40,068 nt of DNA from a virus (IMGVR_UViG_3300000970_000004:1-40068), one strand, 5' to 3'. Positions 121 to 32,960 are shown, numbered from the stretch's first letter. A program made the numbers and translations. The notes: generated from the letters alone by a model not told the origin.

Positions 121-887
121 CAGCAGTCGGAACCGGGACTGATTGCACTTCAAGCCATTACTTCCTTAATGAAAACTTCGACACAGGACGCTTGGAAGTC
201 CGAATGTCACCATCATTGAATGAATTGGACTATTACACTGAAGTGATAAAGACAGGGAAAATTGTCTTCAACCAGAACAACCGCCTGTATATCGAAAACA
301 ATGGCGACCAAGTTATTTTAACAAGCCGCGTTCATGGCGGGATTACAGGAATTAGTGGTTCGGGAAAAGGCGGTTCTGGCACAGGTGACTTCAGCGAAGA
401 GATTTCAATGCGTCGCCCTAACGGAACTTGGACGGCATGGCTGGCCTTCAGCACCGCCAACGCTTCAACACAGATTGCTTCGCTTCCGGCTGACGCCGAT
501 AATCGCATTCAAGTGCGCTTTAGAATAACCAAAACCAACGGCGGTTTGGTTGATTATCTGAATGGAATTTATCTAACCACGACGTGCGATAACACCTATC
601 GTGAACCATTCTTTTTGACGCAAGCTGAAATAAATCTTTCAAGCATTGTCCCGGGAAGTCGCGTTCTAATTCGCGATACGACTGACCCACAAAACAAAAT
701 TATCTTGTTTAATGAGATTGCAAGTTCTAGTGATTTCGTGAAGTTCGTTGGCTTTACGGCGAATTTGCCGCTTGAGATTAGAGTTCGAAATGCGTCTGGC
801 GTTGATAAATACAAGCCATACGAGGCGATAGGAACTTTAACAGCAAATGGCTACAGCTTAGTAGTGAACCAAGAAAGGGACGACTAA
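1..887 (+). CDS. C-terminal part of the junction-spanning beta-helix tailspike-like protein (continues from 38526..39948; 769 aa in total)
   Basis: Same frame as the open-ended ORF starting at 38526. Position 12 corresponds to 39960, and both are 0 mod 3. Stop TAA is at 885..887. The listed start at 12 is an internal Met. Confidence 0.8.
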   Translation, partial: SSGMKMYNLEFEDTQTNGTSTEFGFGTQYLHSMVKNRLTTAVGTGTDCTSSHYFLNENFDTGRLEVRMSPSLNELDYYTEVIKTGKIVFNQNNRLYIENNGDQVILTSRVHGGITGISGSGKGGSGTGDFSEEISMRRPNGTWTAWLAFSTANASTQIASLPADADNRIQVRFRITKTNGGLVDYLNGIYLTTTCDNTYREPFFLTQAEINLSSIVPGSRVLIRDTTDPQNKIILFNEIASSSDFVKFVGFTANLPLEIRVRNASGVDKYKPYEAIGTLTANGYSLVVNQERDD

Positions 888-2326
888 TGGCATTCTGGGA
901 CGATTTTAGTTTAGACGACGCAGGGGCAGGGGTTTTCGACCTTCGCCACACTTCAGGAACGACGCGCTACAGCGTCCTTGAGCTTCACAGAGCGGTTCAA
1001 GATTTGGCTGACGACGAAACAAGCACAAGTGATGACGATAACGACATTACGCGGCCCGTTCTTTCATCACGCCAGACAGACAGGGCGATTACGCTTCTGA
1101 ACGGCCTGAATATTGACGACGCCACGGCGCAGTTCATCACAGGCGGTTCAATTACGCAGGATAATGGCGACACGCTTTATTCAGGAATTGACCTTCAGTT
1201 TTTGGTTCAGCCATTCACCGCTGACGTTTACATGTTGCAAAATGACGCCCGCGTTGACCTTCCAGTTCCAAGCGGAAACGCCGTCACAGACAGCCTTTCA
1301 TTCTTGGTAAAGGTCAAAAGCGCTGGCGCTCTTATCGACAGCGGCGACCTTCGTTTTTACACTCGCGTTTTAGGGAACACAGGTTCAGACCTTGCCGTCA
1401 ATGTTTCAGGCGGCGGTTCGACAACGGTCTTCTTGGGACCGGGTAGCGACGCAAATGTTGATAATGCAGCGGGCGCGACTTACGCGGCAATTCTCGCTGA
1501 TTTGACGATTGCATTCGGCTCTTTCAGCTTTGACGTGAACAATGGGAATGGGGCGCAAAGCTATGACGCCCAAGTCACAGTTTCAAATGACAGGACGCCG
1601 CTTGAAGTATTTCAGGCGCTTCAATACGTCACCCGGGACGGCTCAACCGTTGACCTGAATGGCGACGAAGGTCAGTTCTATCGCATTGCTTCAGCAGGCT
1701 ATACGCCGCTTCCGGCAACGCCATTGGCTTCATTCGCTGGTGGTAACATTACAGGCGCGCAGGGCGTTTACTTCACAGGCTTTGACGCTCAATATGCGCA
1801 GAACTTCATTGGAACGGCTGGCAGCGGCGCTGTTCAAACACCCCCGAACACAGTTCCGATTTCAGTCACTTCAACCGTGTCAGGTGACAGGGTTGCTGTT
1901 TTCCGGGCTGACGGCGCAGCAATCGACACAGACGAATTTGCGCTTGCGGCAGGCAACGACAGCGGCGACGGGACGGTTGAAGTCAAGTCTGCTATCGGCC
2001 AAGACCATCCGCAGTCCGGCTTTGTCCGCGTGTTCAATGGAACGTCATTTGACCGCTATGCTTACTCTTCATTCAGCGGAACAACCTTCACGCTTGACGG
2101 TGTGACGCTTTCGCAGAATTACGCTGAAGACGCTGACGCATTCGTTCCATTCATTGACGCTGACAGCACAGGCGGAACTTTAAGTTCAAGCATTATTCAG
2201 ACTGTTGCAATCCCGGTCATTGTCCGCGTTCGTAACGGTTCAGAGCCTATTGTTCCATTCGAAACGACTGGCACAATCACAGCAAACGGCTTTTCTATTG
2301 GTGCAATTCGCCAGTCAGACGCCTAG
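887..2326 (+). CDS. Virion/tail-associated protein of unknown function (479 aa)
   Basis: Long ORF coupled to the upstream stop by a TAATG overlap. G/T/S/D-rich composition typical of fibre or spike accessory proteins. No motif recognised. Confidence 0.7.
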   Translation: MAFWDDFSLDDAGAGVFDLRHTSGTTRYSVLELHRAVQDLADDETSTSDDDNDITRPVLSSRQTDRAITLLNGLNIDDATAQFITGGSITQDNGDTLYSGIDLQFLVQPFTADVYMLQNDARVDLPVPSGNAVTDSLSFLVKVKSAGALIDSGDLRFYTRVLGNTGSDLAVNVSGGGSTTVFLGPGSDANVDNAAGATYAAILADLTIAFGSFSFDVNNGNGAQSYDAQVTVSNDRTPLEVFQALQYVTRDGSTVDLNGDEGQFYRIASAGYTPLPATPLASFAGGNITGAQGVYFTGFDAQYAQNFIGTAGSGAVQTPPNTVPISVTSTVSGDRVAVFRADGAAIDTDEFALAAGNDSGDGTVEVKSAIGQDHPQSGFVRVFNGTSFDRYAYSSFSGTTFTLDGVTLSQNYAEDADAFVPFIDADSTGGTLSSSIIQTVAIPVIVRVRNGSEPIVPFETTGTITANGFSIGAIRQSDA

Positions 2327-2329
2327 TGA

Positions 2330-2923
2330 ATGGCCTATAGCGTCAACCACGCAACGCGCATTGTCACGGTTCCGCGAAATGACATGCCGCTAGTTCAATC
2401 CAGCCCCGAAATTCGGCGGCTGGATTTAAGCGTTTTTCATAACAACGTCAGACAGCTTGAAGACACTGAAGAGGGCATTATTTTTCAGACTGAAGGTCGC
2501 CCGACAGGTTTAAGCGGAATAATCGCCAAGACGCCCGAAAAGTCATTTGGCGGAACAACTTTGCCGCAAGTTATTGAGCTTATAAATAACTACAATGTCG
2601 TTTTTGAAGACGGTCTTTACGCTGTGAATGTCGAAGGCGGGAACACAAACCTAAACGACAGGACGATAAAGAACCAAGTCAGCCTATCTGTCTCAAATTC
2701 CGCTGGCCTTGTGAATGGTGACATCACTGACCAGATTGTTGAAGGCGACGAAAGCGTTCGCGACGTTCTGCGCCTTATCCGGTCTGCTGTCGTCGGAAAG
2801 GCTTCAGGCGCAGCAACAAACCAAATGCGCTTCAGAGATAAAGCGGACACTAAAGACCGCATAATTGCCGACGTTGACGAATACGGCAACCGCTCCGGCA
2901 TTCAAACGGATGCAGCGGACTAA
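2330..2923 (+). CDS. Virion-associated protein, unknown function (197 aa)
   Basis: ORF sits 3 nt after the preceding stop, in the structural block. The NVEGGNTNLNDRTIKNQVSLSVSNSAGLV segment looks like beta-helix or fibre sequence. Confidence 0.65.
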   Translation: MAYSVNHATRIVTVPRNDMPLVQSSPEIRRLDLSVFHNNVRQLEDTEEGIIFQTEGRPTGLSGIIAKTPEKSFGGTTLPQVIELINNYNVVFEDGLYAVNVEGGNTNLNDRTIKNQVSLSVSNSAGLVNGDITDQIVEGDESVRDVLRLIRSAVVGKASGAATNQMRFRDKADTKDRIIADVDEYGNRSGIQTDAAD

Positions 2924-3387
2924 TGTTCGCCCCGCGCTTCTTCGGCGTTAGGCATTTCGCCCCTAGACACTTTGCGCCCGGACTTGATGAAATCCAAATT
3001 CCCGAGCCAGTAAAGCCGCGCGGCGGCGGTTATGGCGGCTTTATTTCAGCGGACGACGCCAAGCGCGCCAACCTAGCGAAGCAGGCTTTTGACAAGCGTC
3101 AGAGAGAGTGGGACGAAGACCTTTCCCAGATTATTGAAGCAGCGTTCAACCGCGAACTGAACAAGGCGGGCATTGCTGGACCGCAAAAGAAGAAGCCCGT
3201 CAAGACGATACGAAAGAAGGTCACTCGCCGCGTTTATGATGCCGTTAAGACAGATGAAATGGGCTTCAAATTGGCAGAAATCGCGCGTCTGATTGACGAT
3301 TACGCTGAAGTAATTTCGTCGTATTGGCTTGACATAATCCGCCGACAAGATGAAGACGCAATAATTCTATTATTATTGGAAGCGTAA
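2923..3387 (+). CDS. Hypothetical structural-module protein (154 aa)
   Basis: TAATG overlap with the upstream gene. N-terminal FAPRFFGVRHFAPRHFAP repeats, a basic centre and an acidic/hydrophobic C-terminus (EDAIILLLLEA). Confidence 0.6.
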   Translation: MFAPRFFGVRHFAPRHFAPGLDEIQIPEPVKPRGGGYGGFISADDAKRANLAKQAFDKRQREWDEDLSQIIEAAFNRELNKAGIAGPQKKKPVKTIRKKVTRRVYDAVKTDEMGFKLAEIARLIDDYAEVISSYWLDIIRRQDEDAIILLLLEA

Positions 3388-3388
3388 A

Positions 3389-3703
3389 ATGACCAACGCA
3401 GCTTACAAAAAAAACTACGATAATATTGATTTTTCGGACCTTCAGGGATGCACAAGAATTAACCACTCGACTGAAGAGACTGGCAAAAGAAGCAATCTTT
3501 CCGCGCCCATTATCATTGGCGACAACATTGACGTGAAGTCAATGGCTGACGGAAAGCAATACACTTCGAAGCGCGCTTTGCGGAAATCTTACCGCGAACA
3601 AGGCTTTGTCGAAATGGGTAACGAGCGCCCAAAGCGTAAGAAGCCCAAAAGAAAACCCATCCGCGAAAGCGTTGAAAAAGCTTTTGCACAATCCAACCGC
3701 TGA
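3389..3703 (+). CDS. Small basic protein (104 aa), unknown function
   Basis: ORF starts 1 nt after the previous stop. It has a K/R-rich C-terminus (PKRKKPKRKPIRE). Confidence 0.6.
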   Translation: MTNAAYKKNYDNIDFSDLQGCTRINHSTEETGKRSNLSAPIIIGDNIDVKSMADGKQYTSKRALRKSYREQGFVEMGNERPKRKKPKRKPIRESVEKAFAQSNR

Positions 3704-29460: not shown

Positions 29461-30411
29461 ATGAGAGATTACACAAAAATATCAACTTCGATTTGGAATA
29501 GTCGTAAGTTCACCAAGCTTTCAAGCATGGGCAAGCTGCTTTATCTCTATTTTCTGACCTGTCCGAACGTCAATTCTATTGGCTGCTTTGTTATCAAAGA
29601 AGGCTACGTTAAGGCGGACTTGGATTGGAACGGTAAGGAATACGAAAAGACTTTGAAAGAGCTTTCGGACCGTGAACTTGTCCGAACATTCGCTGAAGAA
29701 AACCTTGTCAGAATTATCAATTTTCTTGATTTTGAACAGTTCTCAAATCCGAAACATGCAGCCGGGGCGCTCAAAATTGCACTTAATTTGCCTGATTGTG
29801 TCGAAAAACACCATCTTTTCCAAAATATCAAAGCGACGGCTGACTTCCTCAAAAAAGCCAGTAATTACGATGAATTTGATAGGGTATCGGATAGCCTATC
29901 GAAACAATATCGAAACACAGAGACAGAGACAGAACCCGAGACAGATACCGAACCCCCTACTGACGTAGGGGCTGGCGCTGACGCTTCGCCCGCTAAGAAA
30001 AAGAAGCGAAAAACGGCTTGGCGGGATGGTTGGCGACCTAACCCGTTAAGCCAACATATGAACGACAAGCTCCAATTATCACAAGAAGAACTGAAACATG
30101 AATTCCAAAAATTTGAACAAAACTGTAAAGCGCATAACAGACAATATGTCGATTGGGATGCAGCGTGGCGAAACTGGCTCCAAAGTGATTATGGGACATA
30201 CGGACGCCGGATTGCAGGCCAAAGCGGTCAAGGTGTTGGTGGCTCAAGCTCCAGCAGAAACGGACCGCAAGCTTCGGGGTATGGTGGGTCGTTCCAGCGT
30301 GAACTTGACAAGGGAAAATCACAAAGCGCGGTTGAAAGCTATATCGACGTCACGCCAAGCCCTGACGACGCTGACGGAACACTTCGCCTTGTCTTTGACG
30401 AAGACCCCTGA
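29461..30411 (+). CDS. Replication initiator / replisome-organiser-like protein (316 aa)
   Basis: N-terminal YTKISTSIWNSRKFTKLSSMGKLLYLYFLTCPNVNSIG is typical of phage replication-organiser N-domains. It also has an acidic TETETEPETDTEP linker and a C-terminal W-rich segment (DWDAAWRNWLQ). Confidence 0.5.
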   Translation: MRDYTKISTSIWNSRKFTKLSSMGKLLYLYFLTCPNVNSIGCFVIKEGYVKADLDWNGKEYEKTLKELSDRELVRTFAEENLVRIINFLDFEQFSNPKHAAGALKIALNLPDCVEKHHLFQNIKATADFLKKASNYDEFDRVSDSLSKQYRNTETETEPETDTEPPTDVGAGADASPAKKKKRKTAWRDGWRPNPLSQHMNDKLQLSQEELKHEFQKFEQNCKAHNRQYVDWDAAWRNWLQSDYGTYGRRIAGQSGQGVGGSSSSRNGPQASGYGGSFQRELDKGKSQSAVESYIDVTPSPDDADGTLRLVFDEDP

Positions 30412-30439
30412 AGACCTCGCAAGCGCCTTCTGGCTGGAC

Positions 30440-31072
30440 ATGATGACACGCGGCCTATCATATCGAAACGACGGCGCTGACCTTGCTGACGCGAAGCGTG
30501 ACGCATTTAAGCGCATGTTGTGCAAATATCCGCCTGACGTTGCCCGGGTTTGCTGTGAACGTCTGCGACCTGACGGCTGGTTCCCTTCAATCGACAAAGT
30601 TGAAATTGAAATCATTGAACTGCTGAAGTGGCGAAATGAGGTCTTCACGGCTCTTCTTGAAGGCGAAGTTTTGACCGACGAACAGCTTCGTCAAATTGAA
30701 ATAAGGCGGCTTGGTTATAAGCTGTCAGCGGCGCTGAAGCTGTTTCCGATTTGGGACAATGGCAAAGAGCAAAGACAAGAACAATTTGAAGAGGCCAAGG
30801 CTACGCTTTCGAATGCGCTGCGTGAGTTCGTTGAATTTTGCCCGGAACCTGAAGATTTTATCGACAGGCGCAGCGTCGCAAGCGCTGAAGAATATCTGAA
30901 ATCTGAACTGGTTCCTTACCCTTACAAAATTGAAACAGCTAAAGACCGCTCTGAACGATTGCGTCAGCGCGACCTTGAACACGAACAACGGAAGGCTGAA
31001 GCCATAGCCAACCTTGAAGCGGCGATTGAAGACGACATGATTGCTGAAATTGAAGACCAAAAGCACATATGA
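30440..31072 (+). CDS. Hypothetical replication-module protein (210 aa)
   Basis: This is the first ATG after the upstream stop, in the frame of listed ORF 30098..31072. The upstream 314 nt of that ORF overlap the initiator gene, so the start is uncertain. TTG codons near 30395..30405 are also possible. Confidence 0.5.
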   Translation: MMTRGLSYRNDGADLADAKRDAFKRMLCKYPPDVARVCCERLRPDGWFPSIDKVEIEIIELLKWRNEVFTALLEGEVLTDEQLRQIEIRRLGYKLSAALKLFPIWDNGKEQRQEQFEEAKATLSNALREFVEFCPEPEDFIDRRSVASAEEYLKSELVPYPYKIETAKDRSERLRQRDLEHEQRKAEAIANLEAAIEDDMIAEIEDQKHI

Positions 31073-31392
31073 TGACCTATAGCGAAACAACACAGCGACC
31101 AAAGAAGGCCCGGAAAGAGCATGTTTGCGACGAATGCAAGACGACTATCGCCAAAGGAACGGTTTACATTGGCAACAGCAGCGTCATTGACGGCAAATAT
31201 GAGCCCATGCGACGCCATATGGACTGCATCGCCGCCGCTGACCTATTGGACGCTGAATGCACTGTGAGCGGAACTTATAGCCGCTTTCTGCTGACTGTCC
31301 TGATTGCGAAAAACCCGGACATAAAACCCAAATTAAAAGCTCTGCTGGTTGACTTCCCTGAAGTGTTGGCGCGGCTGAATGCAGCATTATGA
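31069..31392 (+). CDS. Cys-containing hypothetical protein (107 aa)
   Basis: ATGA overlaps at both ends. Contains CDEC...HMDC. Confidence 0.6.
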   Translation: MMTYSETTQRPKKARKEHVCDECKTTIAKGTVYIGNSSVIDGKYEPMRRHMDCIAAADLLDAECTVSGTYSRFLLTVLIAKNPDIKPKLKALLVDFPEVLARLNAAL

Positions 31393-32168
31393 ATAAATTA
31401 TCTTTACTTGATTTGTTTTCAGGAATTGGAGGCTTCAGCGTTGGTTTTGAGGCAACAGGTGGATTTGAGACAGTCGCATTTTGCGAAATTGAAGAGTTTC
31501 CGCGAAAGATATTAAATAAACACTGGCCTAACACGCCAATTTACAAAGACGTAAGGGAACTAAACCGTGAAAAACTTATTGCCGATGGAATTGCCAAAAT
31601 CGACGCGCTCACAGGCGGCTTCCCCTGCCAAGACATCAGCCTTGCTGGAAAGCAGGCGGGAATTAACAGCGAAACAAGAAGCGGGCTTTGGTCAGAATGC
31701 GTTCGTCTTGTTGGCGAATTACGACCCAAAATCGCAGTCTTTGAGAACGTCTCAAACTTGCTTTCTGGCCCTAGCGAACAACGAGGGAGGTGGTTTAGCC
31801 GAATACTCTGCGATTTGGCCGAGGTCGGGTATGATGCAGAATGGCACTGTCTGCCAGCTTCCTTCATTGGTGCATGGCATAAACGGGACAGAGTTTGGAT
31901 TATTGCCTACCCCAACAAAGTCAGAATGGAAGGGCGCGCCTCGACACCGATACTACGGCAGCGACACTTACAAATCGAACTTGTGCGAAGCTTTGAGGCT
32001 TGGCCCGGAAGACCCAATTTACCCACACCCGTCTTTTCTCGAACGCATGATGGGGTTCAAGATAGGGTGGACAGAACTATGAGCCTTGGAAACGCAATCG
32101 TTCCAAGCATTGCGGAGATTATAGGACACGCAATTTTAGAAGAATTCAGCGGAATAATCCGCGAATAA
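31389..32168 (+). CDS. DNA (cytosine-5)-methyltransferase (259 aa)
   Basis: Ordered motifs: DLFSGIGG (I), GGFPCQDIS (IV, 31614..31640), ENV (VI, 31743..31751), GYDAEW, HKRDRVWIIA (VIII) and LGNAIVP (X, 32085..32105). Confidence 0.9.
   Translation: MNKLSLLDLFSGIGGFSVGFEATGGFETVAFCEIEEFPRKILNKHWPNTPIYKDVRELNREKLIADGIAKIDALTGGFPCQDISLAGKQAGINSETRSGLWSECVRLVGELRPKIAVFENVSNLLSGPSEQRGRWFSRILCDLAEVGYDAEWHCLPASFIGAWHKRDRVWIIAYPNKVRMEGRASTPILRQRHLQIELVRSFEAWPGRPNLPTPVFSRTHDGVQDRVDRTMSLGNAIVPSIAEIIGHAILEEFSGIIRE
31567..32082 (+). other. 171-codon +1-frame ORF embedded in the methyltransferase gene, carrying methyltransferase-like C-terminal motifs
   Basis: Open from GTG 31567 to TGA 32080..32082, with an internal ATG ATG at 31831. 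It reads SLRTSQ, WPRSGMMQNG, GLLPTPTKSEWKG and FLERMMGFKIGWTEL. See findings. Confidence 0.35.
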
Positions 32169-32744: not shown

Positions 32745-32960
32745 ATGGATAAAATATATGGAACAGTGAAGTTCTTCGATAAAGGCAAAGGTTTTGGCTT
32801 CATAGCGCCCGACGCTGGCGGCTCTGACGTGTTCGTTCATATCTCTGCTTTGAAAAAATCAGGATGCCCGGAATTGTCTGAAGGTGACAAGGTTTCGTTC
32901 CTTGTTACGCGCGGCAAAAAAGGCAAAGATGAAGCCAGTTCAGTCGCGTTGCTTTCGTAA
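32745..32960 (+). CDS. Cold-shock domain protein (CspA family, 71 aa)
   Basis: GTVKFFDKGKGFGFIAPDAGGSDVFVHISAL with RNP1 (KGFGFI) and RNP2 (VFVH). Confidence 0.95.
   Translation: MDKIYGTVKFFDKGKGFGFIAPDAGGSDVFVHISALKKSGCPELSEGDKVSFLVTRGKKGKDEASSVALLS

Follow-up and report, generated by a model that had tools for sequence, protein, structure and literature searches.

The DNA examined here, called the window throughout, is a stretch of 40,068 nucleotides (nt) from a virus (IMGVR_UViG_3300000970_000004:1-40068). It contains a gene for a C5-cytosine DNA methyltransferase (C5-MTase), here named alpha, and inside that gene, on the same strand and in the +1 frame, a second open reading frame (ORF), here named beta. 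Dual coding of alpha and beta is established as firmly as sequence comparison allows. We propose in addition that the two proteins probably form one two-subunit C5-MTase, a reading that draws on the sequences, on structure predictions and on analogy with a characterised enzyme. Beta would be the small-domain subunit of this enzyme, and both chains would be required for methylation.

Both reading frames are maintained

Translation of the window confirms the two ORFs as they were first reported in a preliminary description of this DNA, frame 0 at 31389..32168 and the +1 frame at 31567..32082. The +1 peptides listed there are also found, namely SLRTSQ (31738..31755), WPRSGMMQNG (31816..31845), GLLPTPT (from 31897) and a C-terminal GWTEL ending at 32079. 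As had been stated, frame 0 carries the C5-MTase motifs I, IV, VI, VIII and X in the correct order; these can be read directly in the translation, and the protein matches Pfam PF00145 with E=1.6e-45. The preliminary description expressed surprise that three pairs of motifs in the two frames interconvert by the same 1-nt shift. This follows simply, because one long +1 overlap runs across the conserved motifs of alpha.

The openness of the +1 frame was compared with a null in which synonymous codons were permuted, leaving the alpha protein and its codon usage unchanged. In the window there are 172 open codons in the +1 frame, against a mean of 71 in 100 such shuffles, none of which reached 172; the longest open run in the +2 frame is 37 codons. 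The comparison set consisted of 80 alpha homologs from IMG/VR, with 47-82% identity, representing approximately 70 distinct genes with a GC content of 0.42-0.63. Among these distinct homologs the open stretch in the +1 frame measures 156-289 codons. Most of them are free of +1 stops between motifs IV and X, and in most the ORF ends no more than about 3 codons away from motif X (GNA[VI]). Over the same stretch the +2 frame contains 5-13 stops. Synonymous shuffles put a mean of 2-6.5 stops into the +1 frame, and at nearly all loci the observed open length was reached in only 0-2% of trials. Six annotated phages from five host genera have the same open +1 pattern, and for the three of low GC content the observed length was reached in none of 300 shuffles.

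The alpha frame is equally well preserved. Across the segment that is selected in the beta frame (see below) it is stop-free in all 71 loci, compared with 2.6 stops per locus, and about 6 stop-free loci, expected under constraint on beta only. Four loci that fell outside the motif filter have alpha-length ORFs too, apart from one that is cut by the end of its contig. Since alpha is free of stops at every locus despite selection in the beta frame, it must be read through to motif X, and beta must be read as well.

The overlap has a strong effect on the synonymous sites of alpha. Upstream of beta the entropy at third codon positions lies at 1.4-1.7 bits; over residues 111-160 it drops to 0.6-1.0 bits, and right after the beta stop it is back at 1.5-1.7 bits. 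Synonymous codon diversity, 0.61 before beta and 0.64 after it, is down to 0.36 over motifs VI-VIII (p=1.4e-12) and to 0.27 where motifs IX and X meet (p=2.9e-6). The beta protein itself is conserved beyond what alpha imposes on it: the mean identity of homologous betas to that of the window is 0.47, against 0.29 when alpha codons are resampled synonymously, and in 65 of 70 homologs the identity lies above all 100 null replicates.

Which frame is under selection at which point was determined from pairs of segments at 75-97% nucleotide identity, every codon with a single difference being scored as silent in alpha or in beta. Before beta, the silent fraction is 0.92 for alpha and 0.07 for beta. 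From motif IV to motif VIII it is 0.68 and 0.26, respectively; from just past motif VIII to 12 codons before motif X it is 0.18 and 0.79, with 64% of the differences falling on position 1 of alpha codons, which is position 3 of beta codons. The last 12 codons before motif X give 0.41 for alpha and 0.56 for beta, indicating a junction that is constrained in both frames, and after motif X the values return to 0.89 and 0.10. A beta-guided alignment shows normal beta-frame codon periodicity over NP..vE.LMGFP.GWT. The pattern of substitutions thus indicates that the order of selection along the gene is alpha, both, beta, both, alpha. It also bears out the earlier impression that frame 0 between 31911 and 32048 looks like off-frame filler: most changes between relatives there leave the +1 protein as it is, and most alter that of frame 0, and the AlphaFold2 model of alpha has a predicted local distance difference test score (pLDDT) of only ~41-62. 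Judged by its substitutions, 31911..32048 is selected as beta protein and not as alpha protein. A genuine second gene, the first of four explanations that had been put forward with no choice made among them, is therefore borne out by the open frame relative to shuffles, by the synonymous constraint and by the frame-specific selection.

An antisense ORF of 108 aa (31541..31867, minus strand) lies opposite the alpha/beta overlap. Its counterparts in two metagenomic loci (L004 and L007) have just 64-69 aa, and it is probably a by-product of doubly constrained sequence.

Beta also has start signals of its own. An in-frame ATG is found 9-30 codons upstream of motif IV, with no intervening stop, in 69 of 71 loci, against 22 under alpha-synonymous resampling. 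An ATG that is in addition preceded, 4-12 nt upstream, by a 5-mer resembling a Shine-Dalgarno (SD) sequence is present in 44 of the 71, compared with 2.7 in the resampled sequences (maximum 8). The usual beta start consists of GGAGGTG, GAGGTG or AGGAG within the codons for HWPEVP of alpha, followed by an ATG made from the alpha codons Y-D or H-D. In the subgroup to which the window belongs, beta starts 17 codons upstream of motif IV; three members (L017, L048 and L070) use ATG for this, and the window uses GTG, as does L010, its closest relative. The putative ribosome-binding site of beta in the window is TAAGGGA at 31552..31558.

Alpha and beta as probable parts of one methyltransferase

Alpha is a member of the C5-MTase family, with at least 8,000 relatives. 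It matches TIGR00675 in an NCBIfam scan (E=3.4e-41) and, over its full length, phrog_363 in a PHROG profile search (2e-70). The match to PF00145 is limited to residues 5-185, corresponding to profile positions 2-169 of 324. The AlphaFold2 model has a mean pLDDT of 76 and is confident over residues 1-175 and over the motif-X helix (residues 239-258), with residues 180-234 having a pLDDT of 41-62 and nearly no secondary structure. When the model was compared with known structures using Foldseek, M.HhaI, M.HaeIII and DNMT1 were matched with E of about 1e-14, over only ~180 columns, that is, over the large domain. A small domain, comprising a target recognition domain (TRD) and motif IX, was not found in the alpha polypeptide itself, the profile and fold matches covering approximately residues 5-185.

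Beta has no match in Pfam or NCBIfam, even with E values up to 10. It does match phrog_1008, annotated as 'DNA methyltransferase' (E=2e-16), the alignment pairing its residues 13-134 with positions 39-156 of a 329-position profile. Its database relatives are 258 proteins of ~180-270 aa, with 34-67% identity and no Pfam domain, which share an N-terminus MTM.EN.Q..LF.ETELP and a C-terminus MGFP.GWTEL; in the beta-guided alignment, the variable and insertion-prone region of this frame consists of LPTP..KG modules. A tblastn search with beta always hits the +1 frame of an annotated methylase coding sequence in the annotated phages of Sulfitobacter, Bacteroides (two), Gordonia, Synechococcus and Paenibacillus. 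All five plasmid hits of beta fall under annotations as dcm or cytosine methyltransferase, a result at the level of annotation and not of frame. The beta model has a pLDDT of ~50 at residues 1-110, which are predicted to be disordered, and 69-93 at residues 112-170, with a helix over PSFLERMM (residues 155-162).

Put together, these features suggest the following arrangement. Frame 0 would encode the large, catalytic domain with motifs I-VIII, then a linker of ~50 residues in which only the absence of stops is needed, and then the motif-X helix, which structurally is part of the large domain. Translation of beta would start internally, from a ribosome-binding site and start codon written into alpha codons. 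The N-terminal ~110 residues of beta would overprint motifs IV-VIII of alpha, and its C-terminal ~60 residues would supply a variable, target-recognition-like region and a motif-IX-like helix and loop, these being the small-domain elements that are absent from alpha. The two chains would associate after translation, as has been shown experimentally for M.EcoHK31I, a two-chain C5-MTase discussed below.

The identity of the beta C-terminus was examined using a chimeric profile made from 34 loci, in which alpha residues 1-174 were joined to the C-terminal part of beta and then to motif X of alpha. It was searched against PDB sequences, with the profile of native alpha as control. With the chimera, M.HhaI gains a second collinear stretch, in which 'lnpelveklmgfpigw' aligns with 'LHPRECARVMGYPDSY' (motif IX) and GNAVVP with GNSVVI (motif X). 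The scores of 3lx6 and 3me5 rise by ~7 bits and that of DNMT3B by 6 bits, with alignments that extend to the C-terminus. These gains lend weak support to the proposal that the C-terminus of beta is motif IX. A chimera made by hand (alpha 1-174, beta 114-171, alpha 231-259) did not improve the Pfam and TIGR00675 matches; both profiles stop short of motifs IX and X even in the single-frame enzyme of Gordonia phage Gudmit (gp58, described below). Nothing significant was found by BLASTP of beta against Gudmit gp58, or by phmmer of the Gudmit C-terminus against PDB. It is worth adding that in homologs the beta tail often overlaps the GNAVVP codons of alpha, so that simple chimeras of the two C-termini are unclean.

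Several observations weigh against a two-subunit enzyme. The evidence that both chains are translated is evolutionary in kind, consisting of purifying selection, open frames and the beta start signals. Beta of the window has a K in place of the nearly invariant P of the family MGFP, and has a start at GTG (or at ATG 31585) in place of the canonical ATG with GGAGGTG; L010 shares both peculiarities. The second stretch in M.HhaI is short and weak, at 4.0 bits with the chimera compared with 0.4 bits (for motif X alone) with the native alpha profile, and the scores of HaeIII and DNMT1 go slightly down. The beta model has no fold match in PDB using Foldseek, and the profile of the beta family has no methyltransferase match among PDB sequences. 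Finally, the likeness to M.EcoHK31I is one of topology and may reflect homology or only analogy, and the TRD of that enzyme was reported to lie in its alpha chain, whereas here the stretch from motif VIII to motif X is selected as beta and is disordered in the alpha model.

Some of these points would be explained if beta were a real, translated and overprinted protein that has nothing to do with completing the methyltransferase, such as a regulatory protein, a factor that counters defence or an accessory that binds DNA, alpha being a self-sufficient minimal methylase. The evidence for dual coding is silent on the function of beta, and a protein with no significant sequence or fold match to the solved small domains of methyltransferases, and with 110 N-terminal residues predicted to be disordered, would fit such a role. 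Nevertheless we consider this unlikely. Canonical C5-MTases require a small domain with a TRD and motif IX for their sequence-specific contacts with DNA (PMC3404938), and from motif VIII to motif X alpha shows neither conservation nor structure. The conserved C-terminus of beta is motif-IX-like and ends exactly where motif X of alpha begins, beta never occurs apart from the alpha frame in 80 loci selected by beta, and the precedent of M.EcoHK31I is of a subunit role.

Much less probable is a single chain produced by two programmed ribosomal frameshifts, from frame 0 to +1 near 31900..31915 and back to frame 0 near 32075..32085, bringing together motifs I-VIII, then the variable region and motif IX from +1, and finally motif X. 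The selected segments do follow one another in the order alpha, beta, alpha, which is the canonical order of motifs I-VIII, TRD, IX and X, and the beta stop adjoins motif X. However, a double frameshift requires neither that the +1 frame be open for ~110 codons upstream of motif VIII nor that frame 0 be open across the beta-selected segment, and both are maintained, frame 0 being open to motif X in 71 of 71 loci. Beta has a conserved start codon and SD sequence of its own; in many homologs its tail overlaps the GNAVVP codons of alpha, so that the junction is not a clean abutment; and the proposed shift sites, where no dedicated search for slippery sequences was made, show neither a frame-0 stop nor any other pause element, frame 0 running straight on through them. 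The preliminary description had raised the possibility of an enzyme whose middle segment lies in the +1 frame. This holds in so far as the segment under protein-level selection is indeed in +1. The recoding that was coupled with it is unneeded; with both frames kept free of stops over their whole length, and with a ribosome-binding site and start codon belonging to beta itself, it is disfavoured.

The idea that the +1 ORF has no function and merely reflects frame-0 constraint or base composition, or that it is a product of sequencing or assembly indels, can be dismissed almost entirely. The conserved motifs of alpha do force some similarity on the +1 frame (the null identity of 0.29), but alpha-preserving shuffles almost never leave that frame open, synonymous constraint is found only in the overlap, and the identity of beta is in excess of the null, which refutes the shadow as it was originally put forward. 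Substitutions in the middle segment are silent in beta rather than in alpha. The indels are refuted by the recurrence of this two-frame layout in more than 150 independent loci, from isolates as well as metagenomes and with low-GC phages among them. Two signs of a shadow had been named in advance, and they disagree: each of the +1 database matches that were examined derives from the +1 frame of some other dcm gene, as was anticipated for a shadow, while the anticipated lack of excess synonymous constraint is contradicted by a strong constraint.

Extent, annotation and surrounding genes

Cluster representatives matched by the beta profile number 25,573 with a cutoff of E<=1e-3, 14,307 with E<=1e-10 and 2,711 with E<=1e-30. 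A reverse test was made with 80 loci from bacterial genomes, picked by the beta motif alone. All 80 have a C5-MTase reading frame at -1 relative to beta. In 61 of them motifs I, IV, VI and X were recognised by pattern, and in 60 of these 61 beta ends before the alpha stop; the ORF in the third frame has a median length of 38 codons. The loci come from more than ten phyla in all, including Proteobacteria, Bacteroidota, Chloroflexota, Patescibacteria, Cyanobacteria, Planctomycetota, Bacillota, Acidobacteriota and Gemmatimonadota. Those exceptions that were inspected are probably frame-switch mosaics that arose from indels.

On balance, we lean towards the view that in a very large clade of short C5-MTases from phages and prophages (tens of thousands of clusters, in more than ten bacterial phyla) the nested alpha/beta arrangement is the rule, rather than an oddity of a single E. 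coli enzyme, and that the whole DNA-recognition (small) domain comes from an unannotated +1 gene of ~170-200 codons. If so, few pairs of genes known to overlap on the same strand in prokaryotic viruses would be as long or as widespread, and thousands of annotations of a 'DNA cytosine methyltransferase' of ~255 aa would describe half-enzymes, with the specificity residing in an uncalled ORF. In the literature searched, from which most subscription journals were outside coverage, we found no paper that presents a beta gene nested in this way as something general among phage C5-MTases.

Gene callers retain one ORF of the pair, usually alpha, and beta at two examined contigs. Many phage methylases would consequently be recorded as half-enzymes, and beta constitutes a family of ~25,000 clusters for which there is no Pfam model. 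Should the variable region reside in beta, the annotated protein would not suffice to predict which sequence such a methylase targets, a point that bears on the anti-restriction strategies of phages and on methylome data. The overlap is also of interest in its own right: it is more than 500 nt long, ancient and phylum-spanning, and selection passes from one frame to the other and back, making it a clean natural system for studies of overprinting.

The two contigs where only beta was called are the metagenomic loci L004 (alpha 2847..3623, beta 3001..3555) and L007 (2847..3632 and 3001..3543), in both of which the two ORFs are intact, with 257-261 aa for alpha and 180-184 aa for beta. Mosaic ORFs that alternate between alpha-like and beta-like sequence were also seen. 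P0054 has motifs I and IV followed by beta, P0087 has beta followed by motif X, L154 (763..1716) has beta followed by alpha, and L128 (510..1673) is a further example. All four are probably due to single-base indels, whether sequencing errors or decaying prophage copies. In a contig from a metagenome-assembled genome (L164), the alpha frame (666..1241, 192 codons) stops soon past motif VIII, and a +1 ORF of 341 codons (697..1719) contains four LPTP modules; this may be a split like that of M.AquI (see below) or a damaged copy. Gp58 of Gordonia phage Gudmit (L003, 1287..2672, 461 aa) has LLPTP modules, a motif-IX-like EWMMMLPAGWV and GNGV at its C-terminus in the alpha frame, and its catalytic region contains in addition a +1 ORF of 245 codons with WPKTGSMRGG and three further LLPTP modules.

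The features of the methyltransferase locus in the window are collected in Table 1.

Table 1. Positions of the alpha and beta genes, their motifs and the segments that differ in selection, in coordinates of the window.
Feature	Position	Strand	Remarks
Alpha gene	31389..32168	+	Frame 0, 259 aa, ATG start; C5-MTase large domain with motifs I-VIII, out-of-frame linker, motif X
Alpha motif I, FSGIGG	31416..31433	+	S-adenosylmethionine (AdoMet) binding; upstream of beta, selection purely in the alpha frame
SD-like TAAGGGA	31552..31558	+	Read from sequence; inside alpha codons V-R-E, 8 nt upstream of GTG 31567
Beta gene	31567..32082	+	+1 frame, 171 aa from GTG 31567; alternative ATG 31585; wholly inside alpha
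Dual-constraint segment	31617..31907	+	Alpha motifs IV, VI and VIII overlapped by the N-terminal half of beta
Alpha motif IV, GFPCQ	31617..31631	+	Sequence
Alpha motif VI, ENV	31743..31751	+	Sequence
Beta RTSQTC	31744..31761	+	Within the dual-constraint segment
Beta WPRSGMMQNG	31816..31845	+	Within the dual-constraint segment
Alpha motif VIII, RDRVWIIA	31884..31907	+	Sequence
Beta-selected segment	31914..32054	+	Beta variable region from LLPTPT on; in alpha an open, unconserved, disordered linker
Beta ERMMGFKIGWT	32041..32073	+	Motif-IX-like helix and GF(P)-loop at the beta C-terminus; overlaps the conserved DG.P.RVDR segment before motif X of alpha
Beta stop codon	32080..32082	+	
Alpha motif X, GNAIVP	32088..32105	+	Starts 6 nt past the beta stop; purely alpha-frame selection resumes

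The ATG of alpha overlaps the TGA of an upstream ORF of 107 aa (31069..31392) in an ATGA arrangement (31389..31392), which suggests translational coupling in a tightly packed block of early genes. Just upstream of the methylase block there are two long ORFs on the same strand, 29461..30411 (316 aa) and 30098..31072 (324 aa), which overlap by ~314 nt in different frames; the second of these has no PHROG match, and its real start may be further downstream. A gene for a cold-shock protein (32745..32960, 71 aa; phrog_729, E=2e-18) is found two genes downstream of the methylase.

Comparison with known systems

The C5-MTases that have been characterised are nearly all monomers, with the exceptions of M.AquI and M.EcoHK31I (PMC3404938). 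M.EcoHK31I, from E. coli HK31 (Lee, Kam & Shaw 1995), is the closer parallel, one that the preliminary description did not name. Its beta chain is encoded entirely in another frame of the alpha gene, and both chains are required for activity (PMC2836561, PMC3404938). The alpha chain has motifs I-VIII and X together with the predicted TRD, and the beta chain has motif IX (PMC2836561). The window and its homologs resemble it in encoding a probable two-polypeptide C5-MTase with beta nested in the alpha gene, on the same strand and in a different frame; and alpha of the window, like its counterpart, has motifs I-VIII and X, the motif-X helix being confidently modelled. In M.EcoHK31I the first 42 residues of beta are dispensable in vitro and internal Met codons can be used as starts (PMC2836561), which fits the variable positions of the beta start in the present family. 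The two differ in that M.EcoHK31I belongs to a restriction-modification system, whereas the present gene lies in the early region of a phage, with no restriction gene evident nearby. A blastn search against complete E. coli genomes gave no match.

A natural C5-MTase of two subunits is M.AquI, from Agmenellum quadruplicatum (Karreman & de Waard 1990); it is split in the variable region lying between the large and the small domain (PMC3404938). The larger subunit contains motifs I-VIII as well as a portion of the variable region, and the smaller one has the rest of that region and motifs IX and X (PMC3404938). The arrangement in the window is different, since motif X is on the small subunit of M.AquI, whose smaller gene is not described as nested, whereas here motif X is on alpha, and beta is nested over its full length.

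Internal ORFs of this kind have already been noticed and clustered, as can be seen from the match to phrog_1008 and from Paenibacillus phage Lily, where gp62 is a cytosine methyltransferase and gp63, in its +1 frame, is listed as 'g62 internal gene'. Both are database annotations that come with no functional interpretation.

Split and circularly permuted C5-MTases have also been engineered, from M.HhaI, M.SssI and M.MpeI (PMC3404938, PMC5944983). In the split constructs two polypeptides correspond to two domains, and the division between alpha and beta proposed here would follow the same logic; with a domain-wise split that keeps motif X tethered to the large domain, nature appears to match the design that engineers have used for targeted methylation tools. 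The engineered enzymes are laboratory constructs made from separate genes, whereas in the window the link between motifs VIII and X is the coding sequence of the other subunit, translated out of frame. The gene pair is a further case of a nested kind that is known and rare, and the more interesting part is the scale of the family and its missing annotation.

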